A stretch of DNA of 32,000 bases from Halomicronema hongdechloris C2206 (lineage in GTDB: Bacteria; Cyanobacteriota; Cyanobacteriia; Phormidesmidales; Phormidesmidaceae), in assembly GCF_002075285.3 (NCBI RefSeq), contig NZ_CP021983.2:2910001-2942000 (forward strand), written 5' to 3'. The notes beneath the pieces were generated by a model that made no database searches, was not told the origin of the DNA, and was given only the letters and a program-made list of their open reading frames with translations. A program made the translations under genes and the position numbers. Numbering within the stretch: the stretch's first letter is position 1; each line of letters begins with the position of its first letter. Positions 2,634 to 29,329 of the stretch are shown piece by piece.

Positions 2634-3284
2634 TCACTCAAACCTTGCACTATCAATCTTGTCGATGTTGTAGGTCTTGGAGCTGTCGTTGATGCTGCTG
2701 CCCTGGATGTCTTGGTAAACCTTGTTGCCGTCGCCGGTGACCGTTGCCGTGGGGCCAGGTCGCGCCTCTGAACCAGCCGTTTCATCCACCGTTGGACTCA
2801 GGTGGATGAACCCGTTAGCGGCCAGCTTCTCTAGCTGATTGCCGAAATGCTCCCGCAGCCCCTCGATGGTGTGATATTCCGTCTTGTAGTGCTGCAGCTC
2901 TTTCAAGGTGTCTTCGAAGGCCCAGAGGCTTTGCAGCTCTTCTCGATTCGTGGTGGTGGGCGGCGTCTTGAAGTAGGTGAAGATAAAGGGCTTCTGGGTG
3001 GCTGAGAACTGACCGAAGGCCTGACGGAACTCCTCTGCCGTGTACTTGCCCACCTTGTTGTAGGCCAGCAGCACGAAGAGGTCGCAGCTGCGGATGGCCC
3101 GGTTATATTCGCTCTGCAGGCCCCCAGGGGCCATGGCGTCTAGGAAGTCTTCCCAGATGTCGAGGTGCAAGAAGATGCCGCGATCGAACCAGGCTTTGCA
3201 CCTGCGATAGATGAAGATCTCAAACTGTTCTCGGTCTGCTTTCAGCTCCGATGAGGAGGCCAAGAATAGGGTGATTTTTTGCAT
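2634..3284 (-). CDS. TIR-like / DUF4062-like (flavodoxin-fold STIR-type) domain protein with low-complexity C-terminal linker
   Basis: MQKITLFLASSSELKADREQFEIFIYRR...GIFLHLDIWEDFLDAMAPGGLQSEYNRAIRSCDLFVLLAYNKVGKYTAEEF...KPFIFTYFK. This is the beta-alpha-beta pattern (hydrophobic strand + SS/T, acidic helix, 'CD-hydrophobic4' strand) of TIR-like N-terminal modules fused to TPR/STAND proteins in cyanobacteria. The assignment is by motif memory, not by search. Confidence 0.6.
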   Translation of the reverse strand: MQKITLFLASSSELKADREQFEIFIYRRCKAWFDRGIFLHLDIWEDFLDAMAPGGLQSEYNRAIRSCDLFVLLAYNKVGKYTAEEFRQAFGQFSATQKPFIFTYFKTPPTTTNREELQSLWAFEDTLKELQHYKTEYHTIEGLREHFGNQLEKLAANGFIHLSPTVDETAGSEARPGPTATVTGDGNKVYQDIQGSSINDSSKTYNIDKIDSARFE

Positions 3285-3337
3285 GGGCCAAGGGGGGGCA
3301 TGGCAATGCCTCCGTTACAACCCATGAGTAGCGTTGA

Positions 3338-3374
3338 GCGTTGCCCGGAATGACGAGATGTGTTTTCGCGGTAG
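3338..3374. repeat. Partial copy of the MITE-like element right arm seen at 7461-7500
   Basis: gcgttgcccggaatgacg...ttcgcggtag compared with gcgcttgcccggaatgacgg...cttgcggtag at 7461-7500. Confidence 0.5.
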
Positions 3375-3599
3375 CCCGGAGCGTAGGTCACTCACGGGCA
3401 CGATATGACAATTTGCAGCGGCGGAAACGATCTGCGCTCCGGGCTCTGAGAGATCAAGTCTTCGGAACGGTGAAGTTGTGCGTCGGCAGAGCACCTTGAA
3501 TAGCAATCAATCACCTTTGTGCCGTCTACACCAACACAGTGTTAGACCTTTCCGCCGTCACTAACTATGATTTGTAGAGACAACTCTAGGAATTGAGGC

Positions 3600-4790
3600 A
3601 TGGATGATCAGGCGCTATCAGCGCTTCTTAGGGATCTTGAATCTGATAGGGTAGAGCGCAAAGCCTCAAATTCAGATGGGAAGAAAATAAGGCAAGCAAT
3701 TTGCGCTTTTGCCAACGACCTGCCGAACCATAAACAACCAGGCGTTCTGTTCATAGGAGTCAATGACGACGGCACCTGCGCTAATCTGCGTATCACAGAT
3801 GACCTTTTACTAAATCTATCCAGCATACGTTCTGAGGGAAAAATTCTCCCCTTTCCTGTCTTGCAGGTAAATAAGCGAGTGATTGATGATTGTGAGATGG
3901 CTGTGATTATCGTAGAGCCCTCAGATGCTCCTCCAGTTAGATTTGATGGGCGTACCTACATACGAGTTGGCCCTAGACGTGCAATAGCTACACCTGAAGA
4001 GGAACGCCGACTAAACGAGAAAAGACGTGCAAGAGACTTACCGTTTGATTTACGCCCTTTTGTTTCTGCCACTATCAAGGATCTAAACTTAGAGGGATTC
4101 CAGCGTGAGTACTTAGCATCCGCACTTGCACCCGATGTGTTAGAGGAAAATCAAAGATCTATAGAGCAAAAGCTTATCTCCCTAAGATTTATGACACCAG
4201 AGCCAAGTGCTTATCCGACCAGCTTAGGGATCTTGGTTGCAGGAAAAGATCCACGACAATTTGTGCCAGGGTTTTATATACAGTTTGTTCGCTTTGATGG
4301 TGTGGACTTGACTGCCCCTATTCGGGATCAGAAGGATATCAGCGGTAGCCTGATGGACCTGTTACGTTACATGGATGAAGTATTACAAGCCAATATTTCA
4401 ACGGCCACTGACATCAAAACGCAGTCTGTTGAAATACAACAGCCAGATTATCCAATTACTGCCTTGCAGCAACTTGTACGTAATGCAGTCATGCATCGCT
4501 CCTATGAAGAAACACATGCTCCGGTGCGAGTCTATTGGTTTCAGGATCGAATAGAGATCCAAAGTCCAGGTGGTTTGTTTGGACAAGTAAATCGACGTAA
4601 TTTTGGTCAAGGTGTTACTGACTACCGTAATCCTCATTTAGCAGAAGCTATGAAGAATCTTGGCTATGTTCAGCGTTTTGGGATTGGCATACCCACAGCC
4701 CAGAAGGAACTGAAAAAGAATGGGAATCCACCCGCAGAATTTATTATTGAAGATTCATATATTTTGGTCATGGTTAGGAGGAAACAGTGA
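3600..4790 (+). CDS. AlbA_2 (Schlafen-like) N-terminal domain + HATPase_c_4-like C-terminal domain protein ('ATP-binding / putative DNA- or RNA-binding protein')
   Basis: The N-terminus LESDRVERKAS...IRQAICAFANDLPNHKQPGVLFIGVNDDGT is the 'E.ktlEfK...i.ktivAFANt.GG.l.iGV.d.G' AlbA_2 signature. The C-terminus has LVRNAVMHRSYEETHAPVRVYWFQDRIEIQSPGGL...YRNPHLAEAMKNLGYVQRFGIGI, the HATPase_c_4-type 'NA..HRdY......i.i....drieI.nPG' box. Sampled lines give lower GC (35-43%) than the flanks. Confidence 0.8.
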   Translation: MDDQALSALLRDLESDRVERKASNSDGKKIRQAICAFANDLPNHKQPGVLFIGVNDDGTCANLRITDDLLLNLSSIRSEGKILPFPVLQVNKRVIDDCEMAVIIVEPSDAPPVRFDGRTYIRVGPRRAIATPEEERRLNEKRRARDLPFDLRPFVSATIKDLNLEGFQREYLASALAPDVLEENQRSIEQKLISLRFMTPEPSAYPTSLGILVAGKDPRQFVPGFYIQFVRFDGVDLTAPIRDQKDISGSLMDLLRYMDEVLQANISTATDIKTQSVEIQQPDYPITALQQLVRNAVMHRSYEETHAPVRVYWFQDRIEIQSPGGLFGQVNRRNFGQGVTDYRNPHLAEAMKNLGYVQRFGIGIPTAQKELKKNGNPPAEFIIEDSYILVMVRRKQ

Positions 4791-5800
4791 GCGCGCCGAT
4801 CATTGCTTTCTTTAACAATAAAGGAGGTGTCGGAAAAACATCTCTTGTTTATCATTTAGCTTGGATGTATTTTGACTTAGGTCTTCGGGTTTTAGCCGCA
4901 GATTTAGATCCTCAGGCGAACTTAACATCGGCTTTTTTAGATGAGGACCGCCTAGAACAGGTTTGGGAAGAGGAACAGGGTTTTAACACTGTTTTTCGGT
5001 GTGTTAGGCCTTTGCTCAGGGGAATCGGTGATCTTGCAAATCCAGAATTAGAATCAATAGATGACGGATTAAATCTTTTGATTGGTGACTTGCAGCTTTC
5101 TGGATTTGAAGATGAGTTATCATCTCAATGGCCAGACTGTCTAGACGGAAAGGAAAGAGCATTCAGAGTAATCTCTGCCTTCTGGAGGCTCCTATCCAAG
5201 GCTTCGGCAAGCAGCAAGGCAGACATTGTTCTGATAGATCTTGGACCCAACTTGGGTGCCATTAACAGAGCCGCTCTGATATCTGCAGATTATGTCGTTG
5301 TTCCGCTTTCACCCGATCTATTCTCATTGCAAGGGCTGAAGAACCTAGGACCTACTTTGAGACGGTGGCGAGAGGAATGGAAGGAGCGGATTCCTAAAAA
5401 TCCTGCTCCAGACCTCATGTTACCTGCAGGAAATATGCAGCCTATTGGATATGTGATTCTGCAGCACGGAGTTCGATTCGATCGACCGGTGAAAGCTTTT
5501 CAGAGATGGGTAGAAAGAATTCCAAATGTCTATCACTCTGATGTTGTTTACACAGAAAATGATAATGTTATTGATTTATCAAAAGACTCCAGCCGTTTGG
5601 CACTAATTAAGCACTATCAGAGCCTCATGCCGATGGCTCAAGCCTCTCGCAAACCAATTTTTCACCTGAAACCTGCGGATGGAGCCATTGGCGCTCATGT
5701 GGCAGCGGTTCAGAATGTATATTGGGATTTTAGAGAGTTAGCTCAGAAAATAGCCATCCGTGTTGGGGTGGACATACCTAGTACCGAAAGGCAGAAGTGA
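4787..5800 (+). CDS. ParA/MinD-superfamily ATPase with extended C-terminal region (337 aa)
   Basis: It has the deviant Walker A FFNNKGGVGKTSLVYHLA, then AADLDPQANLT and IVLIDLGPNL (Walker B-like). Its GTG start at 4787 overlaps the upstream TGA (GTGA), and AGGAGG at 4775-4780 lies 6 nt upstream. Confidence 0.85.
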   Translation: MSAPIIAFFNNKGGVGKTSLVYHLAWMYFDLGLRVLAADLDPQANLTSAFLDEDRLEQVWEEEQGFNTVFRCVRPLLRGIGDLANPELESIDDGLNLLIGDLQLSGFEDELSSQWPDCLDGKERAFRVISAFWRLLSKASASSKADIVLIDLGPNLGAINRAALISADYVVVPLSPDLFSLQGLKNLGPTLRRWREEWKERIPKNPAPDLMLPAGNMQPIGYVILQHGVRFDRPVKAFQRWVERIPNVYHSDVVYTENDNVIDLSKDSSRLALIKHYQSLMPMAQASRKPIFHLKPADGAIGAHVAAVQNVYWDFRELAQKIAIRVGVDIPSTERQK

Positions 5801-5906
5801 GAAGGCAGAAGGCAGAAAGGGAATTCCATGTCACATCAGGGTTTCTGCTTTAGCAAATAGGTGAGTTACTTATACCGCAAAGTACTAAGGCCTTGATCAA
5901 GAGTCT

Positions 5907-6473
5907 TTAACGAATTTGCAGCCAGCCAAAGAGCTTGCCGACGGTGAGGGATAGGGCGGCGGCAAAGGGAGGCACGGGCAGCACATCATCGGAGGACTCT
6001 AGAGAGGTGAGGCGTTTGTCGGGATCGTAGATTTGCACTAACCGTTCGCCAGGGTCGATGAGCCAGCCGAGCTGGCAACCGTGATCCAAACAATGGAGGA
6101 TGTTACTAGCAACGCGGGTGGAAGATTGATCCGGGCTCAGGATTTCGATAGTCCAGTCGGGATGAGCGCTGAAGGTGTTGGCGATGCTGCCGTCTTCATT
6201 AACGGGGAGGCGTGCCCACTGGAATACAGCAATATCGGGAACAATGGAGCGTCCACTAAACGTGCAGCGTAGTTCGGGCAGGGCTAGGGCAATCTGGTCA
6301 TCTTCTGTGGCGGTGTTGATAGCGCTCATTAGCTTCTGCTGTAGGCGACTATGCTGACCCTGGGGCATGGGTTTTTGGATGATCTGTCCATCGATATATT
6401 CGCGGGCAGGTTTGGTCTCTGGCTGTTGCAGAAACTCTTCCAGGGTGATGGATTGAACAGGCGTTTGCACCAT
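5907..6473 (-). CDS. Uma2-family (DUF820) restriction-endonuclease-fold protein
   Basis: ITLEEFLQQPETKPAREYIDGQIIQKPMPQGQHSRLQ...PDIAVF...PDWTIEILSPDQS...KILHCLDHGCQLGWLIDP is the typical Uma2 pattern. The start is taken at the internal ATG (MVQTP). Confidence 0.85.
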   Translation of the reverse strand: MVQTPVQSITLEEFLQQPETKPAREYIDGQIIQKPMPQGQHSRLQQKLMSAINTATEDDQIALALPELRCTFSGRSIVPDIAVFQWARLPVNEDGSIANTFSAHPDWTIEILSPDQSSTRVASNILHCLDHGCQLGWLIDPGERLVQIYDPDKRLTSLESSDDVLPVPPFAAALSLTVGKLFGWLQIR

Positions 6474-6617
6474 CTGCCATTCCCGTCGGCTGGGTACATC
6501 AAATCCTAGATTCAATTTACAGCGTTTTTGAGGCTAGTGGGGTGCACGGATGACCATGAAACCCCTGATATCAGGAGGTAGGCTGTACCTCACCCAGCCA
6601 GGAAATGCTGTAAGAGA

Positions 6618-6872
6618 TCAGGCGGTTGTTTGCTGGGGCAAAGTTTGAGCTAACTTGAGCAGGCCATCAATCGACAGGTCCTCGTCGATGGCAGGCCAGT
6701 GAATGCCATAACCAGAGGGGGAGACTTGATAGAGTTTGCGCTCGGCGTCCGAGGCATTTGCAAGGCGGCTGGAGGTTTGGGCAATGGGCAAACGGACAGT
6801 TTGATCATCGACGGTCAAGATCATCCAATGAGCTTCAAAATCGAGGCTTTGGACATTATGATGCTTATTCAT
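6618..6872 (-). CDS. DUF2442 domain protein
   Basis: HWMILTVDDQTVRLPIAQTSSRLANASDAERKLYQVSPSGYGIHWPAIDEDLSIDGLL is the DUF2442 C-terminal signature (G.GIHWP.lDEDlS..gLL). ATG 6870-6872 overlaps the upstream stop (ATGA). Confidence 0.8.
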   Translation of the reverse strand: MNKHHNVQSLDFEAHWMILTVDDQTVRLPIAQTSSRLANASDAERKLYQVSPSGYGIHWPAIDEDLSIDGLLKLAQTLPQQTTA

Positions 6873-7123
6873 GATTGGCTTCCAAAGTGAGTATTCCAAG
6901 CATCCACAATTTCATCGAAATGTTGCAAGATGATTTTGCGCACTTCACGAGTGTCGCGGCGGGACAATCTGTAGGCATAGGCTTCGCGGATATCGTACGA
7001 CTCCACGTCGAGCCAGTACTTACATTCTGAATCACCTTTTTGAGCATGAATGTGGATGGGTTCATTGCCTTCGTTAGAGTAAAAGTGAAATCGCCACCCT
7101 CTTAGATAAAGAACGGTCGGCAT
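6869..7123 (-). CDS. DUF4160 domain protein
   Basis: MPTVLYLRGWRFHFYSNEGNEPIHIHAQKGDSECKYWL is the DUF4160 N-terminal signature. It overlaps the DUF2442 partner by 4 nt, the usual two-gene arrangement. Confidence 0.8.
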   Translation of the reverse strand: MPTVLYLRGWRFHFYSNEGNEPIHIHAQKGDSECKYWLDVESYDIREAYAYRLSRRDTREVRKIILQHFDEIVDAWNTHFGSQS

Positions 7124-7380
7124 TAGGCTACTGTCTCCGCTACCGTATCTTCTCAAGACGTTCAGGAATTGGCGAGGTAACGATAAACCTCTTCTCGCTC
7201 CTGCTCTGATAATCGCGTAGACCTCGCCCTGAATTCTGGATCGTGCTGCGCTGGGGTTCCCCTCCATCCTCTAGCTCCCTTATGCCCTCCGGGCAGGCAA
7301 AGCCTACGACTCCGCTCAAGGCATGCTTCCTCCCACAAGGGGCGGAAGGAGAACAACGATCTGCTGAGTAGACCTGACTC

Positions 7381-7483
7381 CCGTCATTCCCGCGGCGGCA
7401 GGAATCCAGAGCGTTAACCTTGGCAAGGAAACAGAACGCTCTCTCTGAATTCGGGTGGCGCTGCGCTTGCCCGGAATGACGGG
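7381..7483. mobile_element. MITE-like ~100-bp hairpin element with terminal inverted repeats
   Basis: The ends are CCGTCATTCCCG... and ...CCCGGAATGACGG. Internal arms (ggaatccagag / ctctgaattc) also pair, so the whole unit folds into a long imperfect hairpin. Confidence 0.55.
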
Positions 7484-7527
7484 ACTCTCTCTTGCGGTAG
7501 GTTAGCTGCCTAAGAAAACTGCATTAT

Positions 7528-7610
7528 CGTCATTCCCGTTGCCGCGGGAATCCAGAGCGTCAACCTTGGCAAGGAAACAGAGCCCTCTGCCTGGATTCTG
7601 GGTCGCGTTA
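7528..7610. repeat. Second, right-end-degenerate copy of the MITE-like element
   Basis: cgtcattcccgttgccgcgggaatccagagcgtcaaccttggcaaggaaacaga matches 7382-7435 with a few substitutions. A third right-arm-like fragment (cctgaattctggatcgtgctgcgctgggg) lies at ~7228-7260. Confidence 0.5.
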
Positions 7611-7690
7611 CCCTTCCTCAGCGCTGCCACACCTTAGGTTTACCCTGCCGTCCTGAACCTCACCGTTGATGGCGGGGTCATTCACCGCGT

Positions 7691-7877
7691 CTGACCAAGT
7701 ATTTTATCTATGCAACTAACGATCTGCATTGATGGAATATTGATCTACAGCCTCTAACCAAGATTCCAGTCCATGCGACTAACGATCTGCATTGATGGAG
7801 TATTGGTTCACGGCCTCTAACCAAGTATTGCATCTATGTGATTAACGATCTGCATTGATGGAGTATTGGTTCACGGC
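7691..7877 (+). repeat. Three tandem copies of a 61-63-bp unit
   Basis: The units are 7691-7751, 7752-7814 and 7815-7877. The shared core is ct(c)taaccaag-N-taacgatctgcattgatgga(g/a)tattg(g/a)t(t/c)(c/t)ac(g/a)gc. Confidence 0.85.
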
Positions 7878-8094
7878 GGCGAAGGAAGGTTTCACGAGTG
7901 CAAACAAAGCCTCTACGATGACGGAGAAAGGTTTCATGACTGCGAAGGCCCCTTTCACGGTCGCGCAGGAAGTTTCCAGAGACACAAACAAAGCCGCCAC
8001 GATCGCAAAGAAAGCTTTCAGGGCCGCCGATAAAGCTTCCAGAATTGCCAATAGAGTATTTGCGATCTGCTTGAATTGCATGACAACAGAGTAG
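7855..8094 (+). CDS. Possible small heptad-repeat protein (79 aa); strand ambiguous, since a GTG-started 85-aa ORF covers 7842..8099 on the minus strand
   Basis: Both strands are open across the 21-nt repeats. The plus peptide is amphipathic (AAKEGFTS ANKASTM TEKGFMT AKAPFTV...). The minus peptide is very hydrophobic (LAILEAL SAALKAF FAIVAAL...). There is no clear RBS on either strand. Confidence 0.25.
   Translation: MMEYWFTAAKEGFTSANKASTMTEKGFMTAKAPFTVAQEVSRDTNKAATIAKKAFRAADKASRIANRVFAICLNCMTTE
7879..8067 (+). repeat. Nine tandem 21-nt (7-codon) degenerate repeats, with alternating sub-types (42-nt super-period)
   Basis: gcgaaggaaggtttcacgagt / gcaaacaaagcctctacgatg / acggagaaaggtttcatgact / gcgaaggcccctttcacggtc / gcgcaggaagtttccagagac / acaaacaaagccgccacgatc / gcaaagaaagctttcagggcc / gccgataaagcttccagaatt / gccaatagagtatttgcgatc. 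Confidence 0.8.
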
Positions 8095-8135
8095 GCCACT
8101 GTCTTGTCTAAAGCGTTACCCCATGGCGCATCTGA

Positions 8136-9446
8136 TTAACAGTCCAGGGTTGTCTGCAGTTCCCAGGCGGTAATCTGGCGGGTGTATTCGCGCCAGGCCT
8201 GGTGCTGTAGCTTCAGGTAGGCGGCGGTGAAGTCTGGGCCCATGCGCTCGGGCAGTACGGTGTTCTGTTCCAGATGGCCCAGCGCCTCCAACAAGCTTTT
8301 GGGTAGGGGTTTGACGGTGCCGGGTGGTAGCGGCTCGGTGTACATGTTGTTATCGTGGCGGGGACCGGGATTCCGTTTTTCGGCCATGCCGTCCAGGCCG
8401 GCGGCAATGAGCGCTGCCGGCAGCAGATAGGGATTGGCCGCACCGTCGGCGAGCCGCAGTTCAAAGCGTCCTGGATCGGGGATGCGGATGGTGTGGGTGC
8501 GGTTGTTGCCGCTGTAGCTGAGGGTATTGGGCGACCAGGTGGCGCCGGAGGTGGTCACCGCTGCATTGATGCGGCGGTAGGAATTGACCGTCGGGTTGGA
8601 GAAGGCGCACAGCGCTTCGCCCCCGTGCAACACGCCGCCGATGAACTGATAGGCCAGGGGAGATAAGCCCAGGTCGCCCTCGGCATCGAGAAACAGATTG
8701 ACAGAGCGGTCTGCATTCCACACCGACAGATGCATGTGACAGCCATTGCCCGTGAGGTGAGGGAAGGGCTTGGGCATGAAGGTGGCGCGCAGGCCATGCC
8801 TTTCGGCAATGCTCTTGACCATGTATTTGAAGAAGGCCTGGCGATCGCTGGTCACGAGCGCATGGTCGAAGGTCCAGTTCATCTCGAACTGACCATTGGC
8901 GTCTTCATGGTCATTTTGATACGGTCCCCAACCCAGGAAGGACATGCCGTCGCAGATTTCGCGAATCACGTCATAGCGGCGCATCAGGGCCTGCTGGTCG
9001 TAGCAGGGTTTGGCCTGGCGATCGCGCCCATCGGAGATATCACTACCGTCGGCATTCAACAGAAAGTACTCACACTCCACGCCGGTGCAGACTTGATAGC
9101 CCTGCTCTTTCGCCTGGGCCAGCACCCGTTTCAGGACCAAGCGAGGGGTCTGGGGGATGGGTTGCCCATCCACGTCGTACAGGTCGGCAGGCATCCAGGC
9201 CGCTTCCGGCTGCCAGGGCAGTTGGAACAAGCTGTTGGGGTCGGGAATCGCCAGCACGTCGGGATCGGCGGGCGTCATGTCCAGCCAGGCCGCGAAGCCG
9301 GCAAAGCCGGCCCCATTGGCGGCCATCATGTCGATGCTTTGGGTCGGCACCAACTTGGAGCGCTGCACCCCAAACAGGTCGGTGAAGGAAATGAGGAAAT
9401 AGCGGATGCCTTTGTCGCGGGCAATGTCGGAGAGCGCCTGAGTCAT
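8136..9446 (-). CDS. Glutamine synthetase family protein, ~435-aa GlnT-like (gamma-glutamyl ligase) type
   Basis: The N-terminal beta-grasp is IRYFLISFTDLFGVQRSKLVP. The catalytic-domain motifs are GVECEYFL, NDHEDANGQFEMNW, KPF....GNGCHMHLSVW, NSYRRI and NRT..IRIP. Confidence 0.9.
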   Translation of the reverse strand: MTQALSDIARDKGIRYFLISFTDLFGVQRSKLVPTQSIDMMAANGAGFAGFAAWLDMTPADPDVLAIPDPNSLFQLPWQPEAAWMPADLYDVDGQPIPQTPRLVLKRVLAQAKEQGYQVCTGVECEYFLLNADGSDISDGRDRQAKPCYDQQALMRRYDVIREICDGMSFLGWGPYQNDHEDANGQFEMNWTFDHALVTSDRQAFFKYMVKSIAERHGLRATFMPKPFPHLTGNGCHMHLSVWNADRSVNLFLDAEGDLGLSPLAYQFIGGVLHGGEALCAFSNPTVNSYRRINAAVTTSGATWSPNTLSYSGNNRTHTIRIPDPGRFELRLADGAANPYLLPAALIAAGLDGMAEKRNPGPRHDNNMYTEPLPPGTVKPLPKSLLEALGHLEQNTVLPERMGPDFTAAYLKLQHQAWREYTRQITAWELQTTLDC

Positions 9447-9525
9447 GGTGGATGTGAATAGAAGAGCCGCAGCAGGAGTCCATCCCTAAGCAGCACAATC
9501 TTCCAGTGAGGGCGGCGGCACCGTC

Positions 9526-9539
9526 GTAGCAGACATTAC
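9526..9539. promoter_or_regulatory. NtcA-type box GTA-N8-TAC upstream of the GS-family gene
   Basis: GTAGCAGACATTAC is a perfect GTAN8TAC, ~80 nt upstream of the 9446 start codon. On the minus strand a weak -10-like AAGATT lies ~23 nt downstream. The 6-nt specificity means roughly 8 chance hits are expected per 32 kb. Confidence 0.35.
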
Positions 9540-9640
9540 CAATCTGTCATCGCATCCCTGATTCAGCGGTTGCCATCGGATGTCGAGGCCATCGCCCGAT
9601 AGGCTCCTTTATGGACATAACGTGCACCATTGAGCGCATC

Positions 9641-9856
9641 CTAAATCCAACCGTTGAATGGCATGTCAAGGCGAGTGCGAGGCATGTCAGAGGGATGACA
9701 TAGCTTGTCAGGGCGATTGCCTTGCGATCGCATCTGAAATTCTTCTAGGGGATAGCGCTGCTTGGCAGTGAAGTACTCCTTCACCACCAGGGAAGGGGAG
9801 TAGCAGATATCTCGCGAACCATCGGGCCATTCAATTTGGAAGCGGATTTCAGGCAT
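9641..9856 (-). CDS. MSMEG_0570-family (Nit1C-cluster, nitrogen-starvation associated) small protein; C-terminal third looks aberrant
   Basis: The N-terminus MPEIRFQIEWPDGSRDICYSPSLVVKEYF matches my memory of that family's conserved start (MPE..F.irWPDG....CYSPS.Vv..yf). The tail ...GNRPDKLCHPSDMPRTRLDMPFNGWI does not look like the family. Confidence 0.5.
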   Translation of the reverse strand: MPEIRFQIEWPDGSRDICYSPSLVVKEYFTAKQRYPLEEFQMRSQGNRPDKLCHPSDMPRTRLDMPFNGWI

Positions 9857-9938
9857 CAGCGGGGGCGCAGGTAGATGGATGGGAAAAATTTTAAAATTTG
9901 AACTATGAACTGTGACCTATGAACTGCCAATTTCCCAT

Positions 9939-10223
9939 TCATGTAGACTCCATCAGCAGCTCGTGGTAGTGCTGGACATGCTGCCGGGCAGAGCAGCACC
10001 AACTGTAGTCTACCAGGGCCGCCTGACTACGACTGATGACGCCGATACGATCGCCGTTAACTTTCTGGAGCATGGCTTTGGCGATGGTAGATGGATCGCT
10101 AGGATCGACCCAGAAGGCCTGGTCCCGGTCGAGGAATTCGGTGAAGAGAGCCTAGTCGGAGACGATGACGGGGCGTCCAGATGCGATCGCTTCTAATACC
10201 ACCATACCCCAGCCCTCGGTTAG
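9939..10223 (-). pseudogene. Group-1 glycosyltransferase C-terminal fragment with in-frame TAG
   Basis: My translation is LTEGWGMVVLEAIASGRPVIVSD*ALFTEFLDRDQAFWVDPSDPSTIAKAMLQKVNGDRIGVISRSQAALVDYSWCCSARQHVQHYHELLMEST*. This has the GT1 'EG.G.v.lEA.a.G.PVi.sd' motif. The stop is at 10152-10154 and the N-terminal ~250 aa are absent. Confidence 0.65.
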
Positions 10224-10229
10224 GGTACG

Positions 10230-10396
10230 CTGCCGGGAAACCGGGGTGTTAGAGGAAGGTGCCAGATCGCCCGTTGACGCTTGACGCTTTAGCCATAAGT
10301 CAATCGTGTTACGGCTGATTTGGAAGGCAGTACTGGCCTCACTCTTCGTCATCCCATTGAGTTCAATGGCGTCAATGACCTTCTGGCGTAAGTCTA
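10230..10396 (-). mobile_element. IS630-family transposase N-terminal HTH fragment
   Basis: YSLDLRQKVIDAIELNGMTKSEASTAFQISRNTIDLWLKRQASTGDLAP has the typical IS630/Tc1-type N-terminus (YSLDLRqkV......G.s...a...f.vs..tv..W.kr....G.l.p). No DDE domain follows. Confidence 0.6.
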
Positions 10397-10561
10397 GGCT
10401 GTAGGGCTTCGGCTCTCTTTGGGGTGGCGCTTGTCATGGAACAGAATGTACCGACGGATCCACTGCACATAGGTTTGCTCGGTGCGGTAGGAGTAGTGCT
10501 TCAGACGAATGGTGTCGCGAACTTGATCAAGCAGCTTCTTAGGACGAGATTCCGGGTGCAT
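10394..10561 (-). pseudogene. Integron-integrase-type tyrosine recombinase, N-terminal SAM-like fragment only
   Basis: MHPESRPKKLLDQVRDTIRLKHYSYRTEQTYVQWIRRYILFHDKRHPKE compares with IntI1 [38 protein letters not shown]. It breaks off after ~50 aa into the IS630 stub. Confidence 0.6.
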
Positions 10562-10643
10562 AGGGCCGAATACCAATAGAGATGGTAAACAAACCTTAAA
10601 CACTCAAGGCGGCAAAGCGGAGGGTTGATTATACTGAATCTTT

Positions 10644-10760
10644 CAGCCTAATCACCCATATAGGGCGGTTAGGCTGACGTATTTCCACCCATACACCCAA
10701 ATAGGGCATATGGGCTGATGTATTTCCACCTAATCACCCATATAGGGGAGTTATGCAGAA
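10644..10760 (+). repeat. Three hairpin-type ~41-bp repeats (possible attI-region recombinase-binding repeats)
   Basis: The units are cagCCTAATCACCCATATAGGGCGGTTAGGctg, then acgtatttccac-CCCATACACCCAAATAGGGCATATGGG-ctg, then atgtatttccac-CTAATCACCCATATAGGGGAGTTATGC. The first unit closes on GTTAGGC (10668-10674). Confidence 0.6.
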
Positions 10761-11021: not shown

Positions 11022-11528
11022 ATGGAAATCATTCCGAAATTTGAAATTGGCACCTTTAAAGGCAAGGTCGCTGGATATAACGAATACAGATTTATCTGTC
11101 GATTATTTATTCCTCCCAATCGAGATGAGGCAACAGTAGTATGGCTTCGTGAAAAAGAAGCTTTAGTACTCAGCACCAGTTTCGAGAAGCCATACTCCAA
11201 GATTATTTTTGCCACAAATAACGACAAGATTATAAGAAGCATTCATCATAAGTATGGAATATCTAAGGTAGATTTAAAGCTTTTGTACACAGAGATTGAT
11301 GCTTTCGATGAAAAGTCGGAAGACGATTTCGAAGAGTTTTATTCTTCAACGGAATATCAAGCTTATGATGATGAATACTATCAAGATACCCAGAGGGAAA
11401 TCCTTGATTATATGACGGATTACTCTAATGCCATGGTTGCATCTTCTGAAAATGGCTGGTTTTATGATGAGACGATCCATTCAAAAAATGAAGCCTTAAA
11501 GTTGGCATTAGAAGAAGATCTTTACTGA
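11022..11528 (+). CDS. Hypothetical protein, 168 aa, acidic Tyr/Asp/Glu-rich C-terminal half
   Basis: This is a clean ORF in a 37-38% GC block (23/60 and 22/60 G+C in two sampled lines). The C-terminal part is DAFDEKSEDDFEEFYSSTEYQAYDDEYYQDTQREILDYMTDY. I recognise no domain. Confidence 0.65.
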   Translation: MEIIPKFEIGTFKGKVAGYNEYRFICRLFIPPNRDEATVVWLREKEALVLSTSFEKPYSKIIFATNNDKIIRSIHHKYGISKVDLKLLYTEIDAFDEKSEDDFEEFYSSTEYQAYDDEYYQDTQREILDYMTDYSNAMVASSENGWFYDETIHSKNEALKLALEEDLY

Positions 11529-11596
11529 TTTAAAGTTCCTAAAGACGACATCAGACAAGTAAATAATCTTGCATATAAACGAGGAAAAATAAATTT

Positions 11597-11890
11597 ATGA
11601 GCGATAAATTATATAATGTCAATAAACTTTCTGCTGAGGAAATTCCTTTTCATAATTACTTTGAGTTGTTGGCATCTGAGTTTGGCCATAAGTATGAGAT
11701 TTGGGTGCGAAATGAGGACTTTGGCCGATTTGTAGCAGTTGGTGTTGTGAACCGAAGCTCAGGAATAGCTGCGACTATTTACTTAAAGCGTGGCGGTGTT
11801 GTGATATCTAATCCATTAAACCAAGAAACAATTGTGAAGATAAGAAGTCATTTGAATTCAGGCGCTAAGGAAGACTTGTGCATTAATTAA
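11597..11890 (+). CDS. Hypothetical protein, 97 aa
   Basis: ATG is preceded by GAGGA 14 nt upstream. It lies on the same strand, 68 nt after the previous stop. I recognise no domain. Confidence 0.6.
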   Translation: MSDKLYNVNKLSAEEIPFHNYFELLASEFGHKYEIWVRNEDFGRFVAVGVVNRSSGIAATIYLKRGGVVISNPLNQETIVKIRSHLNSGAKEDLCIN

Positions 11891-11992
11891 ACACTATATC
11901 TATTGCAGGTATAATTTAAAGGATTTGCAAGGAAATTTTAGCCAGAAATATTAGTGATATTAGAGCTAATTTACATAAAGGATTATTTAGAG

Positions 11993-12511
11993 ATGAGTGA
12001 TATTCCAGTTCAGCTACTTCAGCATCTTGGCAAGCATGGTGTGCGCATGAGGCAATTCCTAAGCGATGATTTCAGCAATATAGATGATTCTCAACGTCGA
12101 GAAATGGCTACAGAAGCTCGCCAAATTACGGCTTGGGCAGCGGCGGCTATCGCACCTATGCCTATACCATTCGCCGATATCTGGACGATTACACCAGTGC
12201 AGATGCTTATGGTTCGGGCTATCGGTAATATTTATGGATACAAAATTGATAGTAAAACAGTTAAAGAGATGCTTGCGGTTATTGGCGGCGGAATGCTTGG
12301 TCAACAAATATGTCTTGCGCTGTTCAAAATTGGCTTACCCGGTGCTGGGGGTTTTGGAGGTGCTGCATTCGTATTTTTCTGGACACATGGTATTGGCAAA
12401 GCAGCAGAACTTTACTTTCAGAGCGGCATGACTGCGACTGCAGAGGAACTTGCGGCAGCACGCAAGGAGGGAATGGAACAAGCAAAAAATGAAACACCGC
12501 GCACTGAGTAA
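11993..12511 (+). CDS. DUF697-like membrane-associated protein (172 aa from ATG 11993)
   Basis: AAAAIAPMPIPFADIWTITPVQMLMVRAIGNIYGYKID...LALFKIGLPGAGGFGGAAFVFFWTHGIGKAAELYF is the DUF697 pattern (PiP.aD...ltpiQ..Mv..Ia.iYG; glycine-rich hydrophobic hairpin; T.aiG). AAGGA lies 13 nt upstream of the ATG. Confidence 0.65.
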   Translation: MSDIPVQLLQHLGKHGVRMRQFLSDDFSNIDDSQRREMATEARQITAWAAAAIAPMPIPFADIWTITPVQMLMVRAIGNIYGYKIDSKTVKEMLAVIGGGMLGQQICLALFKIGLPGAGGFGGAAFVFFWTHGIGKAAELYFQSGMTATAEELAAARKEGMEQAKNETPRTE

Positions 12512-12535
12512 CCAATGGCATAAGGTCGCGGCGCA

Positions 12536-12618
12536 AGCTAACACGTCGTTGGAGCCGAACGGCGAGAGGTTATCAGTCTATATTATGATGCTATCTGCGT
12601 CGGCTCAACTATGACGTT
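12536..12618 (+). other. attC-like recombination site, 3' end (AGGT, 13695-13698) separated by the IS insertion
   Basis: AGCTAAC (R''-like) ... imperfect inverted arms with bulged bases ... GTT|AGGT (R' GTTRRRY once the IS and one TSD copy are removed). The reconstructed length is 87 nt. It begins 25 nt after the DUF697-like stop codon. Confidence 0.55.
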
Positions 12619-12630
12619 GGCACTGTCCTG

Positions 12631-25919: not shown

Positions 25920-28900
25920 TCAAAGGATGGTAGATGAACCCACTTCACCCGCTGCTGAGCTTTCCGAGGAGTGGTCAACCGCCCCCAACGCCAACATTGA
26001 CGCCCGCTGAGCCTCCGTCAGCCCCCTTACTCCAGTAATGTTGGTGCCTTCATAGGGGCGGGGTATTTGCAACACCTTTAAACATTCGCCCGTGCTCACC
26101 TGCCACAGACGAATGGTGGCATCATTACTGCCTGTCGCTAACCATTGCCCATCGGGACTAAACCCAACCGATCTGACCCAGTTGGTATGCCCTGTTAAGG
26201 TCTGGCGGCATGCCCCCGTGCTCACCTGCCACAGACGAATGGTGGCATCAGCGCTGCCTGTCGCTAACCATTGCCCATCGGGACTAAACCCAACCGAACT
26301 GACCCGGTTGGTATGCCCTGTTAAGGTCTGGCGGCATTTCCCCGTGCTCACCTGCCACAGACGAATGGTGGCATCATTACTGCCTGTCGCTAACCATTGC
26401 CCATCGGGACTAAACCCAACCGATCTGACCCAGTTGGTATGCCCTGTTAAGGTCTGGCGGCATGCCCCCGTGCTCACCTGCCACAGACGAATCGTGGCAT
26501 CATCGCTGCCTGTCGCTAGCCATTGCCCATCGGGACTAAACCCAACCGAACTGACCCAGTTGGTATGCCCTGTTAAGGTCTGGCGGCATTTCCCCGTGCT
26601 CACCTGCCACAGACGAATCGTGGCATCATCGCTGCCCGTGGCCAGCCATTGCCCATCGGGACTAAACGCGACAGATCTGACCCAATTGGTGTGTCCGATT
26701 AAGGTTTTGCGGCATTCCCCTGTACTTACCTGCCACAGCCGGATAATGGCATCTCCACTACCCGTGGCTAACCATTGCCCATCGGGACTAAACGCGACAG
26801 AGTTCACCCAATTAGTGTGTCCGATTAAGGTTTTGCGGCATTCCCCTGTACTTACCTGCCACAGCTGGATAATGGCCTCTCCACTACCTGTGGCTAGCCA
26901 TTGCCCATCGGGACTAAACACCATAGATTTGACCGAATTGGTGTGTCCGGTTAAGGTTTGGCAGCATTCCCCTGTACTTACCTGCCATAGGCGAGTAGTA
27001 GCATCATCACTACCTGTGGCTAGCCATTGTCCATCGGGACTAAACACCACTGAGTTCACCCAATTGGTGTGTCCGATTAAGGTTTTGCGGCATTCCCCTG
27101 TACTCACCTGCCACAATTGGATAGCGCCATCATCCCCACCTGTAGCTAACCATTGCCCATCGGGACTAAACACCACAGATTTGACCGAATTAGTGTGTCC
27201 GGTTAAGGTTTGGCAGCATTCCCCTGTACTTACCTGCCATAGACGGATAGTGGCATCATTACCACCTGTGGCTAACCATTGTCCATCCGGACTGAAAGAG
27301 ACAGAAGAGATTCGCCCAAACGGGTAGGTCAACGCAGATCGAATCCATCGGCTATTGACTAGATTCCATCCATGCAGTTCTATTCCACTTAAATAAATTT
27401 GTCTGAGGGTCAATCGAGAGAAATCAAACGGTTGGACGTCTGATCTCACCTGAACTAGCAAATTTAATAGATTGCCAGCAGCATATCCCCTACCCCAATC
27501 AGAGTGTTGACGAATGGTTTGAAGTGATACGCAGACGTGTTGATCTAAATTGGCAATACAAACTGCAATTGGCTCCAGAATAAGGCGCATCTGGGTTTCT
27601 CGCACATAGTCTTTCGCTGTAGCTTGAATCAACGTATGAGTATGAAAAAGGTCAAATTGTTGAGTATTTAGCTCTCCACTAACCTGCTCAACAAACCGAT
27701 CTGTAGCAAACTCCATGATCACGTTTTGCAGGGTGAACTGCTTGTCCACGGTTTCTATCAGGTAACGGTCAGTCAACCCCCTCAACGCACTCCGCACTTC
27801 CCGCTTCGTCACGGGCGGCAGCAGGTCTTCCATCAACTCATCCAGCCCCACGGGTTCGCGGTTGATTGCCAGCCAGAACAGAATGGAACGCTCCAAGGGC
27901 ACAAGGCGGGTAAGGTGCTGGTCGAGTAGGCTGCGCACATCCTCAACCGCGGCCCCTTCCTCTTCCAGAAAATCATCCACATCGCCCAAGAACTCTCGCT
28001 GAATGGCCGTCGCCACCAGATGTAGTGCTTGGGGATTACCGCTATAGCGACAAATCAGCTCTTGGCCTTGGGTATCGGCTTCATCCAGTTCTAAGCCCTT
28101 TGCCTTCAGAATTGCGCGTCCGGCTTCAATATTGATGCCCGTTACCGACCACAGACGCACAGGGAAGCGATCGCCCGCCATTGGAGCCAGTTCGCGGGGA
28201 CATTCCCGACTGGTCAGCAGCAGGCAACTTTGATGCTCGGCCTCGCCAATCCGGTGAATCAGTTCCCCATACCCTTCATATCCGCCTCGAAACTGCCCGG
28301 TTGATTCCGCCTGCAAAACCGATTCCAGGTTATCTAGCACCAGCAAGCAGCGGTGTTCCCGTAAATAGTGGAGCAGACGAATGATGCGTTCGCCCAGGCG
28401 GGTGGGCAGATTGATTTCCGTTTCCTGCTGGTCCGAGAGGAACTGAATCAGCCGCACCAGAATCTCATCCAGCGGTGGGGCTTCCCGCAAACTGCGCCAG
28501 ATCACATAGTCGAACTGGTCATAAATCTGGTCTGCGACCTTGGCGGCCAGAGAAGTCTTGCCGATGCCGCCCATGCCCAGCAGCGTCACCAGGCGGCACG
28601 GCTCTGTCAGTATCCAGCGGTTGAGGATGGCGAGCTCCTCTGTGCGGCCAAAGAAAATGCTGGTGTCCGGTTTTTCGCCCCAGTCAATTTTGGCCGACGA
28701 TCGCGTTTCCTGAGGTGTTGGCTCGGGACCTGCTGCTTGTGGAGGCAATTCAGGCAGGCCATAATCAGTGGTTTCCAGGTCTAACCCAAAGGCTGCGAAA
28801 AAGGTTTGCACCGAAGCTTCATCTACGGGTGCCGTGCGATCGCAAATCTTCTTGATCGTCTTGCGGCTGATACCTGCTCGCTCTTCCAACTCTGCTTGGG

Positions 28901-29006
28901 TGAAACGCTTGCCGTATTTCTCTCGATCTTGGGCCGCTGCGATCGCAGCTTCCAGTCTCTTTTGGCCGGGCTCGGTGAGGACAACACCGCGTTGACGCTG
29001 ACTCAT
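25920..29006 (-). CDS. STAND NTPase: N-terminal HTH + NB-ARC/AAA-type P-loop + helical arm + 10 WD40 repeats (1028 aa from ATG 29006)
   Basis: The HTH is [20 protein letters not shown]. Walker A is [13 protein letters not shown] (~28545-28585), Walker B is CLLVLDNLE, and LLLTSRE follows. The repeats are ten copies of [11 protein letters not shown]....I.LWQVSTG.C..TL.GHTN. The tail [27 protein letters not shown] is common in cyanobacterial WD40 proteins. The 88 codons upstream of ATG 29006 look non-coding. Confidence 0.85.
26091..27330 (-). repeat. Tandem 126-bp WD40-coding repeats (10 units)
   Basis: The period is 126 nt. Units 26091-26216 and 26343-26468 are identical over 126/126 nt by eye, and adjacent units differ at ~8 positions. 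The left block (to ~26640) and the right block use different synonymous codons. Confidence 0.9.
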
Positions 29007-29329
29007 GGCGGGCGGGGGGGGGAGATGACACACAGCCGGCGGGAGCCCTTGGGGCGGCAGTGGCGTTTCACAGCACTCGACAATCGGAATGTTAAGGGAA
29101 AGTTCCCGAGGCTTATGCCGATGGTAGGCGATCTTTCCCAAAAATTCCCCTGCCCGGCAGGGCCGGTTGCAGGGGCGATCTAGGGGTGGCCAGAAAGTTT
29201 CTGGCAACCTTCTCCTAAGCTGCCGAACTTCCTGGGAATAACGCCATTGCCCCGACACACTGAGGGCCATGGATGCAAAACTTACCAGGAGACCCCATGC
29301 ACCTAGCCGACGTCTTTCAAACCCCGAGT

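Follow-up and report, generated by a model that had tools for sequence, protein, structure and literature searches.

A Schlafen-type gene coupled to a long ParA-like ATPase gene in Halomicronema hongdechloris: a widespread mobile pair, most likely a defence or addiction module

A stretch of 32,000 nucleotides (nt) from the genome of Halomicronema hongdechloris C2206 (NZ_CP021983.2, positions 2,910,001-2,942,000 of the forward strand; hereafter the window, in whose own numbering coordinates are given) contains two overlapping plus-strand genes which are the subject of this report. Gene A (3600..4790) encodes a protein of 396 aa in which an AlbA_2/Schlafen nuclease domain is joined by a linker to a C-terminal HATPase_c_4 module ('minimal histidine-kinase-like' plus winged helix-turn-helix, wHTH). 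Gene B (4787..5800) starts with GTG and encodes a long ATPase (337 aa) of the ParA/MinD, deviant-Walker-A class. Such a pairing of Schlafen-HATPase and long ParA-like proteins had been proposed from the open reading frames (ORFs) of this DNA, in what we call the original prediction, and Pfam searches confirmed both ORFs and their domains. At the junction of the two genes (4776..4790, plus strand), AGGAGG (4776-4781) is followed after five bases by GTGA (4787-4790), in which the start of B lies over the stop of A. A consensus scan placed a sigma-70-like promoter ahead of the pair (3543..3571, plus strand; TAGACC, a 17-nt spacer, TATGAT). Both hexamers fall within a block conserved among cyanobacterial copies with unrelated flanks, the -35 hexamer overlapping the R'' box of an attC site upstream of gene A, and we predict that this is an active promoter belonging to the pair itself. 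On the evidence presented below, the pair is most likely an unnamed two-part module for defence or addiction, and not a DNA-partition locus.

The Schlafen domain of A (SLFN_AlbA_2, PF04326) spans residues 14-126 (E = 4.7e-14; 53.4 bits against a cut-off of 25.3), while HATPase_c_4 occupies residues 307-391 (4e-18, above the gathering cut-off). The Schlafen catalytic motif, E-x4-E-x-K, is present as ESDRVERK at codons 14-21 (3639..3662, plus strand). Among 101 members of the A family, at least 98% have E14 and E19 and at least 90% have K21; the full motif is retained in 97 of the 101. The motif Ex4(E/D)xK has been defined as catalytic for human SLFN11 and for prokaryotic Schlafens (pSlfn), in association with a tRNase role (PMC13056530). 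More than 120 homologues share 75-88% identity with A, nearly all of them exactly 396 aa in length, and a threshold of E ≤ 1e-30 yields 563 clusters (50% identity) for the wider family in a set of 1.84 billion representatives. In the C-terminal half, residues 250-377 match PDB entry 3lmm, a C. diphtheriae protein (DIP2311) from structural genomics whose function is unknown (PMC8780604), and the C-terminal region carries the GHKL-like boxes RNAVMH, SPGG, and RFGIGI. Some sources label proteins of this type 'transcriptional regulator', and the matches of A in PADLOC-DB v2 are confined to the N-terminal modules of proteins associated with prokaryotic Argonautes.

An alternative assignment of A as a HEPN RNase was considered, given the RNAVMH box and a HEPN-ParA dyad described in 2013. 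It was rejected, as no HEPN family in Pfam matched at E ≤ 0.01 and the only Rx4H in the protein (RNAVMH, 294-299) is the conserved GHKL N-box, also aligned in 3lmm, and not the HEPN Rx4-6H. A distant AlbA_2-HATPase_c_4 homologue (27% identity) was also noted as gene 31 of Mycobacterium phage Squirty (locus L145 in our collection), beside an integrase and a RelA/SpoT-like gene; a prophage region of this kind is the usual place of mycobacteriophage-encoded defence genes.

Gene B matches AAA_31 over residues 5-200 (1.7e-28), as well as CbiA (both Pfam). Its Walker A motif, KGGVGKT (K12-T18; 4820..4840, plus strand), includes the signature lysine K12, and both the Walker A' motif (DLDPQAN, residues 39-45) and the Walker B aspartate (D151) are present. 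These motifs are conserved in 90-98% or more of the family, KGGxGK[ST] being found in 91 of 101 sequences. Canonical ParA/Soj is shorter: between Walker A' and Walker B the present protein has an insertion, and its C-terminus is longer by roughly 80-100 residues, close to the extension of about 100 residues originally predicted. The sole full-length structural match is an uncharacterised protein, PDB entry 3pg5 (residues 6-305, 3e-27); structures of Soj/ParA cover only about residues 2-200. 3PG5 is presumably DIP2308, which would place it three loci from DIP2311 (3LMM); this is offered as a lead only. In PADLOC-DB v2, the match of B extends over 42 residues of a candidate system. Like A, B has well over 100 close homologues; identity to B is 74-84% across cyanobacterial orders, falling to 55-66% in archaea and the remaining phyla.

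The most constant feature of the B family lies in the C-terminal extension, where a family-specific motif, KPIFHLKPADGAIGAH (K289-H304; 5651..5698, plus strand), conforms to the pattern P.F.L...DG..G found in 100 of 101 sequences. This motif may form the interface with A. It is kept, in the form KPxFxLxxxDGxxG and together with the 4-nt overlap with an intact A, even in B proteins with an altered nucleotide-binding site: one in which the P-loop is deleted (L127, 3954-4895), one with K17M (L091), and two, from loci embedded in Hma operons (L081 and L087), whose Walker A reads TTGGSGGKT.

The distribution of the pair was surveyed by a genome scan using B as query (one genome per species; 52 true loci) and a metagenome scan using A as query (80 loci). 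In all, about 130 loci, from the Cyanobacteria, nine other bacterial phyla, and two archaeal lineages, have gene A directly upstream of B. The bacterial loci obtained with B derive from Cyanobacteria, Acidobacteriota, Planctomycetota, Actinomycetota, Chloroflexota, Gammaproteobacteria, Gemmatimonadota, Bacillota, and SAR324, and the archaeal loci from two metagenome-assembled genomes (MAGs), one of the Methanosarcinales and one of Nitrososphaera; cyanobacterial carriers include Geitlerinema, Leptolyngbya, Gloeomargarita, Spirulina, and Snowella. Linkage was nearly complete in both directions. With B as query, A was immediately upstream in about 50 of the 52 loci, while with A as query, B was directly downstream in 62 of about 73 evaluable loci and cut by the contig end in a further 7. 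Of 100 intact pairs from different phyla, 89 share the 4-nt overlap (ATGA or GTGA), and the identities of A and B to the window copies are correlated (r = 0.80). Two overlapping genes which move together in this manner display a trait of toxin-antitoxin (TA) systems of type II. No conserved third gene, whether ParB, integrase, or transposase, accompanied the pair in about 50 loci, the flanks are not syntenic, and chromosomal positions vary. The possibility, raised with the original prediction, that the two genes are unlinked in other genomes can thus be set aside.

The two proteins are also found naturally joined. An in-frame A-B fusion of 731 aa (P0340), present on 15 contigs from several independent samples but from one lineage, contains AlbA_2, HATPase_c_4, an 11-residue linker, and the ParA-like domain with its C-terminal motif retained, all in a stable, housekeeping genomic context. 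Together with the overlap behind AGGAGG, which can be read directly from the window, and its retention elsewhere, this fusion bears out the co-translation which had been predicted. A second apparent fusion, of 690 aa (P0331), proved to be a frameshift artefact, with an arginine-rich, out-of-frame stretch on a single contig.

Relatives of A carry other domains in the place of B. A SAVED domain, the cyclic-oligonucleotide sensor of CBASS-type effectors, is fused C-terminally to two of them (P0242, 54% identity, and P0259, 43% identity), and a Fic-like_C domain is carried by another. As these substitutions occur alongside the A-B fusion, the core of A appears, judging from domain arrangements, to behave as an effector cassette with a varying downstream partner, either fused or separate. 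The same pattern of effector and variable partner has been described for pSlfn proteins and their sensors (PMC13056530). Near the gene for P0259 (L150, 2375-4360) there is no annotated cyclase; the two upstream genes encode an APS-kinase-like protein and an unknown protein of 146 aa.

In about 19 loci, the pair is located inside operons of BREX type 2, DISARM class 1, or Hma. In Actinoplanes xinjiangensis the order is PglW-PglX-[A-B]-PglY(BrxC)-PglZ, with full-length PADLOC matches (E = 0 to 1e-247), and a Pseudonocardia MAG shows the same BREX type 2 arrangement. Spirulina sp. CS-785/01 features DrmD-[A-B]-DrmMI (DISARM class 1), while in about 15 metagenome loci the pair separates HmaA, a SNF2 helicase-nuclease, from HmaB, a DUF1156 methylase. 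The chromosome of Dactylococcopsis salina (L007, 3600-7900) bears a decaying DISARM-like island in which DrmD is split, DrmMI is fragmentary, and A is reduced to remnants while B remains a full-length ORF of 335 aa. Most copies, that of the window among them, stand alone, without BREX, DISARM, or Hma genes in the vicinity. The Schlafen-miniHK-wHTH architecture has itself been described as an auxiliary effector linked to BREX and BREX-related systems in at least 1017 taxa (PMC12839542).

The mobility of the pair is most apparent in the main cyanobacterial clade, in which copies with unrelated flanks share about 130-150 nt of conserved sequence upstream of A and a further 45 nt or so beyond B, the whole forming a discrete unit of about 2.4 kb. 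In the upstream block a hairpin precedes GTTAGACCG, while the downstream block has CGGTCTAAC at its end, the two sequences being reverse complements. Sequence conserved between loci is bounded by ...AAC to the left and by ...GGTCTAA|C to the right, which are G|TT cassette boundaries. Read on the minus strand, the cassette starts with TTAGAC after the G|TT junction and ends in an attC-like site. In this site R'' GTCTAAC is separated by a spacer of 3 nt from a stem bearing two bulged bases; a variable loop and the complementary stem come next, and after another spacer the site closes with R' G|TT. In relatives the stem measures 6+7+3 bp, R' G|TT gives way to locus-specific sequence, and DNA folding reproduces the structure. 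The A and B genes are inverted relative to this site. The layout agrees with the published anatomy of attC, including the R box RYYYAAC/GTTRRRY, and cyanobacteria are known to carry integrons (PMC4889954). Our first reading of the hairpin, as a subterminal hairpin of IS200/IS605 type, was abandoned in view of the GTTAGAC/GTCTAAC boxes, the G|TT boundaries, neighbouring divergent sites, and a fragment of intI in the window.

Further sites were sought with home-made covariance models rather than IntegronFinder, the first built from eight sites and a second, R2, from nine. The first model detected sites which keep the structure while diverging in sequence, abutting the other end of the module in L012, L015, and L017; their 3' end, CGTTAGACCG, coincides with the module boundary. 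A second attC-like site abuts the module in L016 as well, where it follows B. Over nine diverse sites, 81.6% of cells were paired, compared with 30-35% when the 3' partners were slid by 1-3 columns, and 11 pairs had changed on both sides, values reached by none of 500 shuffles, although the extra sites had been chosen with a model of this same structure. R2 also found sites outside its training set, namely the third site of L012, the site after B in L016, and that of the window. In L012 (MAG Cyanobacteriota bins.80, 6662-9987), three attC-like sites, all on the minus strand (6662-6753, 9063-9154, and 9897-9987), delimit the A-B cassette between the first and second and an ORF of 177 aa between the second and third, and the array continues to the end of the examined stretch. 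The best NCBIfam match of this ORF, below cut-off, was 'DNA topology modulation protein' (P-loop kinase-like).

In the window itself both cassette ends are eroded. The attC-like site at 3460..3550 (minus strand) retains R'' GTCTAAC, the reverse complement of GTTAGAC at 3541-3547, while its stem pairing has decayed; it is homologous to well-formed hairpins upstream of A in L001, L012-L014, L016, L017, L019, and L020, and scored 27.3 bits (E about 5e-6) with R2, among whose nine sequences it was not included. The conserved left edge of the cassette falls at about 3466-3468. On the right (5801..5869, plus strand), an alignment of downstream flanks indicates that intact relatives end in ...GGGTTTGGGGTATCGGTCTAA|C, i.e. 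the G|TTAGAC junction on the minus strand. An exact GTCTAAC occurs 56 nt after the B protein match in 13 related loci and is degenerate in the window (GGTGAGTTAC).

An integrase remnant lies 4.6 kb from the module, facing a different array. The minus-strand ORF at 10394-10603 (69 codons) encodes an N-terminal fragment of IntI (Phage_int_SAM_4 1.1e-13, NF011946 2.9e-13, TIGR02249 2.8e-11), truncated after about 50 IntI residues and succeeded by fragments of an IS630-like transposase helix-turn-helix and of a glycosyltransferase. Adjoining it are three 41-nt direct repeats (10641-10759; TTTCAGCCTAATCACCCATATAGGGCGGTTAGGCTGA and variants) with a GTTAGGC core-site-like sequence, which may represent an attI region with integrase-binding repeats. 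Beyond these, a second low-GC island (0.34-0.47; 11022-12624, plus strand) holds ORFs of 168 aa, 97 aa, and 185 aa, the last with DUF697, at 11022-12511, and a well-formed attC-like site at 12533-12624 (plus strand). The latter scored 24 bits with model R1, from which it was excluded; its score of 73 bits with R2 is circular, the site having been used to build that model. The island resembles a canonically oriented cassette beside the intI remnant, and fragment, repeats, and island together look like a degenerate integron. The A-B cassette lies outside this array and, with its eroded ends, is probably a fixed but still intact insertion. Across phyla, the module was poorer in GC than its flanks at 67 of 76 loci, a pattern consistent with horizontal acquisition on repeated occasions.

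In the window, GC content is 0.42-0.47 over 3500-6000 and 0.55-0.62 on either side (500-nt windows), the pair averaging 0.446 against 0.573 in the flanks. The low-GC island of the original prediction therefore stands, though the lower value of 35% quoted there is too low at the 500-nt scale. Similarly, the HIP1 octamer, with 22 copies in the window, is absent between 422 and 8840 as had been noted; this gap is significant for the accessory stretch of 8.4 kb as a whole but not for the 2.2-kb pair alone, in which only about 1.5 copies would be expected. The expected neighbours were also confirmed by Pfam and a repeat search. To the right lie Uma2 (5907-6515), DUF2442 (6618-6899), and DUF4160 (6869-7267), and copies of repeats resembling miniature inverted-repeat transposable elements (MITEs) occur at 3341-3374/7467-7500 and 7382-7455/7528-7601 (family CGTCATTCCCGC...GGAATCC and TTGCCCGGAATGACG...), one arm just beyond the left edge of the cassette and the remaining copies adjoining DUF4160. 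What the prediction had missed in this setting was the integron-type cassette; its suggestion of a possible defence or addiction module gains support from that cassette, from the embedding in BREX, DISARM, and Hma operons, and from the retained catalytic motif, the function itself being inferred.

Some further features of the window were recorded. On the left of the cassette, the minus strand encodes a 216-aa protein (2634-3284) with a weak TIR_2 match (E = 0.006; PADLOC PDC-S60 3.7e-4) and a 215-aa TPR protein (1651-2298) with an internal 74-nt direct repeat (1796-1869, 1934-2007), and these two may constitute another conflict-type pair. More distantly, a minus-strand ORF of 1116 aa (25920-29270) includes about ten tandem repeats of 126 nt (42 aa) at 25957-27390. 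An Rfam scan of 3200-6200 returned zero matches, no tRNA or tmRNA genes were present in the window, and no terminator-like site was found after gene B.

Partition loci are the customary setting of ParA-class ATPases, and here the searches were negative. No ParB is encoded in or beside the pair, and the region 3200-6100 contains only short, chance-level repeats, none of them tandem or iterated in the manner of a centromere. Among 72,556 plasmids the best matches were of 26% identity for A and 36% for B, with no close homologue of either, and 50,697 phage records and IMG/VR likewise held no close homologue. NCBIfam partition models fell far short on B, the best reaching 62 bits against cut-offs of 180-348. 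The view that this is not a partition locus is thus upheld, and the pair did not prove to be mainly plasmid-borne beside ParB. On a single plasmid, of Ca. Chlorohelix (L144, 3992-7083), the gene for an 'ATP-binding protein' of 484 aa, distantly like A (26% identity), immediately precedes a canonical parA-parB pair, an adjacency which may be a coincidence.

Taking these observations together, we favour, with moderate confidence, an interpretation of the pair as a mobile, self-promoted conflict module with an anti-phage role, an addictive role, or both. In the mechanism we envisage, A would be the effector, a Schlafen RNase whose intact Ex4ExK site is joined to a GHKL-like and wHTH module and which, by analogy with characterised Schlafens, might cut tRNA or other RNA and so stop translation. 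Translational coupling would supply B in a fixed proportion to A, and B would bind A, probably through its conserved C-terminal extension, as a nucleotide-dependent regulator. Most likely B would act as both brake and sensor, silencing A until an infection-related cue, for example the failure or inhibition of a neighbouring methylation-based defence, released or activated it. Among cyanobacteria the pair travels as an inverted integron-type cassette with its own predicted promoter, and in other phyla it would add an accessory layer to the BREX type 2, DISARM, and Hma operons into which it is inserted.

Patterns of decay provide some indication of the direction of regulation. Of the 52 loci found with B, 45 have an intact A, whereas in 7 (Gloeomargarita, Dactylococcopsis, Roseofilum, and others) A is degraded next to an intact B. 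With A as query, 56 loci have an intact B, one more has both genes broken up by an insertion, and 2 of 58 have lost B beside an intact-looking A, each on a short contig. In one of the latter (L084), B is cut after 13 codons and A bears E19Q in its catalytic motif. The imbalance leans towards restraint of A by B, though not decisively. Such a relationship has precedents in prediction: dyads of an RNase (HEPN, in some cases fused to Schlafen) and a ParA/Soj ATPase have been proposed as TA systems with the ATPase as antitoxin (PMC3710099), and MinD/ParA-like domains, predicted to be inactive, occur in other conflict systems (PMC7159879).

Several observations weigh against this interpretation. 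Firstly, the asymmetry just described is weak (7/52 versus 2/58, Fisher p = 0.08) and compares two differently sampled data sets. Secondly, the other locus lacking B (L102) retains A with its catalytic motif intact, which argues against constitutive toxicity of A. Thirdly, Walker A is altered in about 10% of B proteins, such that ATP turnover may be non-essential to the core role. Fourthly, most immediate neighbours in cyanobacteria are housekeeping genes; around 25 genome loci such families dominated the Pfam counts, with PADLOC matches from only 2 loci. The enrichment in defence islands which the original prediction had proposed to look for was therefore not seen, and the association with defence rests on the embedded copies rather than on a general island signal. 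Fifthly, the two pSlfn-HisKinase genes assayed in E. coli were not among the two protective ones, and the study is silent on any ParA partner of the genes it tested (PMC13056530). Lastly, an AlphaFold2 model of A, based on 30 homologues of 75-88% identity, reached a mean confidence (pLDDT) of 44.7 and was unusable for locating the active site or an interface.

A more specific version of the favoured account is attractive, though we regard it as tentative: the pair would be an immune system of two components, as yet unnamed and shared by bacteria and archaea, in which a ParA-type ATPase, ordinarily a motor of DNA segregation, serves as both infection sensor and safety catch of a Schlafen tRNase, providing an 'anti-anti-restriction' backup like that of PARIS. 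ParA-ATP dimers bind DNA non-specifically, and B could accordingly sense foreign DNA, or the DNA-mimicking anti-restriction proteins with which phages disable BREX, DISARM, or Hma, and in response release A. Passage from phylum to phylum would have taken place through insertion into defence operons and, in the cyanobacteria, as integron cassettes.

Less probable in our estimation, though still to be taken seriously, is a pure TA-like addiction cassette with A as toxin and B as antitoxin. Its post-segregational or post-excision killing would maintain the cassette and stabilise both integron arrays and defence islands, and it would have no dedicated anti-phage role. The tight overlap of the genes, their own promoter, and their inverted position on an integron-type cassette all accord with this possibility, as do the more frequent decay of A beside an intact B than the reverse, the TA-like neighbours in the window (Uma2 and DUF4160/DUF2442), and the predicted TA nature of RNase-ParA/Soj dyads (PMC3710099). 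Integron cassettes are, moreover, reported to be enriched in TA and anti-phage systems, TA being the commonest recognisable cassette systems and stabilising arrays (bioRxiv 10.1101/2024.07.02.601686). However, A and B, at 396 aa and 337 aa, far exceed the components of classical type II TA systems (about 70-150 aa), and the additional GHKL-like and wHTH domains of A are typical of regulated effectors. The substitution of a SAVED sensor for B in relatives, the repeated insertion within BREX, DISARM, and Hma operons, and the intact A without B in L102 are also difficult to reconcile with addiction alone. Addiction and defence are, in any case, not mutually exclusive roles.

It is improbable, in our view, that the pair merely regulates methylation-based defence, with A binding DNA through its wHTH and B serving as the ATPase in controlling the expression or targeting of BREX, DISARM, or Hma. 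Its position between helicase or methyltransferase genes of three such systems would suit this role, as would the wHTH-containing HATPase_c_4 at the end of A, the 'transcriptional regulator' label applied by some sources, and the established non-specific DNA binding of ParA-type ATPases, but the catalytic Ex4ExK is under strong purifying selection, most copies stand alone, and the pair moves as an autonomous cassette. Least probable by far is a non-canonical partition or positioning system in which B is a ParA motor and A a DNA-binding adaptor replacing ParB: the intact deviant Walker A, A', and B motifs of B, the wHTH of A, and the distant A-like gene upstream of parA-parB on one Chlorohelix plasmid are outweighed by the absence of close homologues from plasmids, phage records, and IMG/VR, the lack of centromere-like repeats, the variable and non-syntenic chromosomal positions, the low scores with partition models, the conserved nuclease active site of A, and the persistence of the pair where B has lost its P-loop.

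The conflict module we favour is of interest for several reasons. Schlafen nucleases link human antiviral immunity to bacterial defence, and the commonest bacterial Schlafen architecture, Slfn-HisKinase-wHTH, is without a demonstrated function or known trigger. The omission of a partner such as B may explain why tests of single genes could fail. Should B be the sensor, this would be one of few instances in which immunity has recruited a partition-type ATPase, and insertion into three methylation-based systems fits the current idea of 'backup effectors'. The pair is, in addition, small (2.2 kb) and well defined, and the attC-type sites, arrays, and intI remnant described here are documented in filamentous cyanobacteria, a group barely explored for integrons.

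PADLOC-DB v2 has no model for the pair, in agreement with the original prediction, which knew of no named system with this composition. With ParABS and type I partition systems it shares the deviant-Walker-A superfamily of B (signature lysine, Walker A', and Walker B), but it differs in lacking ParB, parS, and iterons, in its absence from plasmids, in the insertion and C-terminal extension of B, and in having a nuclease-domain protein as the upstream partner. Like the TA and defence cassettes of integrons it forms a discrete unit with an attC-like end and a G|TT boundary, with arrays in relatives and a truncated intI fragment in the window; unlike them, its genes are inverted with respect to attC and have their own promoter, and in the window its ends are eroded and it lies outside the array beside the intI remnant. 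PARIS (AriA ATPase and AriB nuclease) would follow a common logic, in which an ATPase sensor or brake is combined with an RNA-targeting nuclease, and is often recruited into BREX loci as an anti-anti-restriction backup (summarised in PMC12839542). The protein families are nevertheless unrelated, an OLD/ABC ATPase and Toprim there and ParA/MinD and Schlafen here, and there was no PADLOC match. The HEPN (MAE_18760 family)-ParA/Soj dyads (Anantharaman et al. 2013, PMC3710099) likewise combine a predicted RNase with a ParA/Soj-like SIMIBI ATPase. Some of their HEPN proteins are fused to Schlafen, the prototype is cyanobacterial, and the ATPase is proposed as antitoxin or regulator; they were called 'less common' and have never been tested. 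Gene A differs in containing no detectable HEPN domain.

The closest relationships are with two recently described groups of effectors. The pSlfn 'Slfn-HisKinase(-HTH)' class (Perez Taboada et al., Nat Microbiol 2026, PMC13056530) shares the PF04326 nuclease, the Ex4(E/D)xK motif, and the C-terminal HATPase_c_4 of A. Architectures of the HATPase_c_4 type are the commonest among pSlfn proteins (34% + 19%), and the family is enriched near defence genes; tRNA cleavage or phage protection has been demonstrated for two other classes, the protective genes being of the DUF262 and Ig-like classes (PMC13056530). Those are single-gene systems with fused sensors, however, while the regulator here would be a separate, translationally coupled ATPase, and PMC13056530 makes no mention of a ParA-like partner. 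The Schlafen-'minimal histidine kinase'-wHTH effectors of BREX and BREX-related systems (NAR 2026, PMC12839542) share both the architecture of A and the embedding in BREX-type loci, from which the window copy departs in residing on an integron-type cassette rather than in a BREX locus; a ParA/MinD-type partner is not mentioned in that survey. The class to which A belongs, pSlfn-HisKinase-wHTH, and its role as an auxiliary effector of BREX-like systems are thus already published (PMC13056530, PMC12839542). What is new is a large, conserved branch of A that is obligately coupled, sometimes by fusion, to a dedicated long ParA-like ATPase, and the occurrence of this pair as a discrete mobile unit which inserts into three kinds of methylation-based defence operons.

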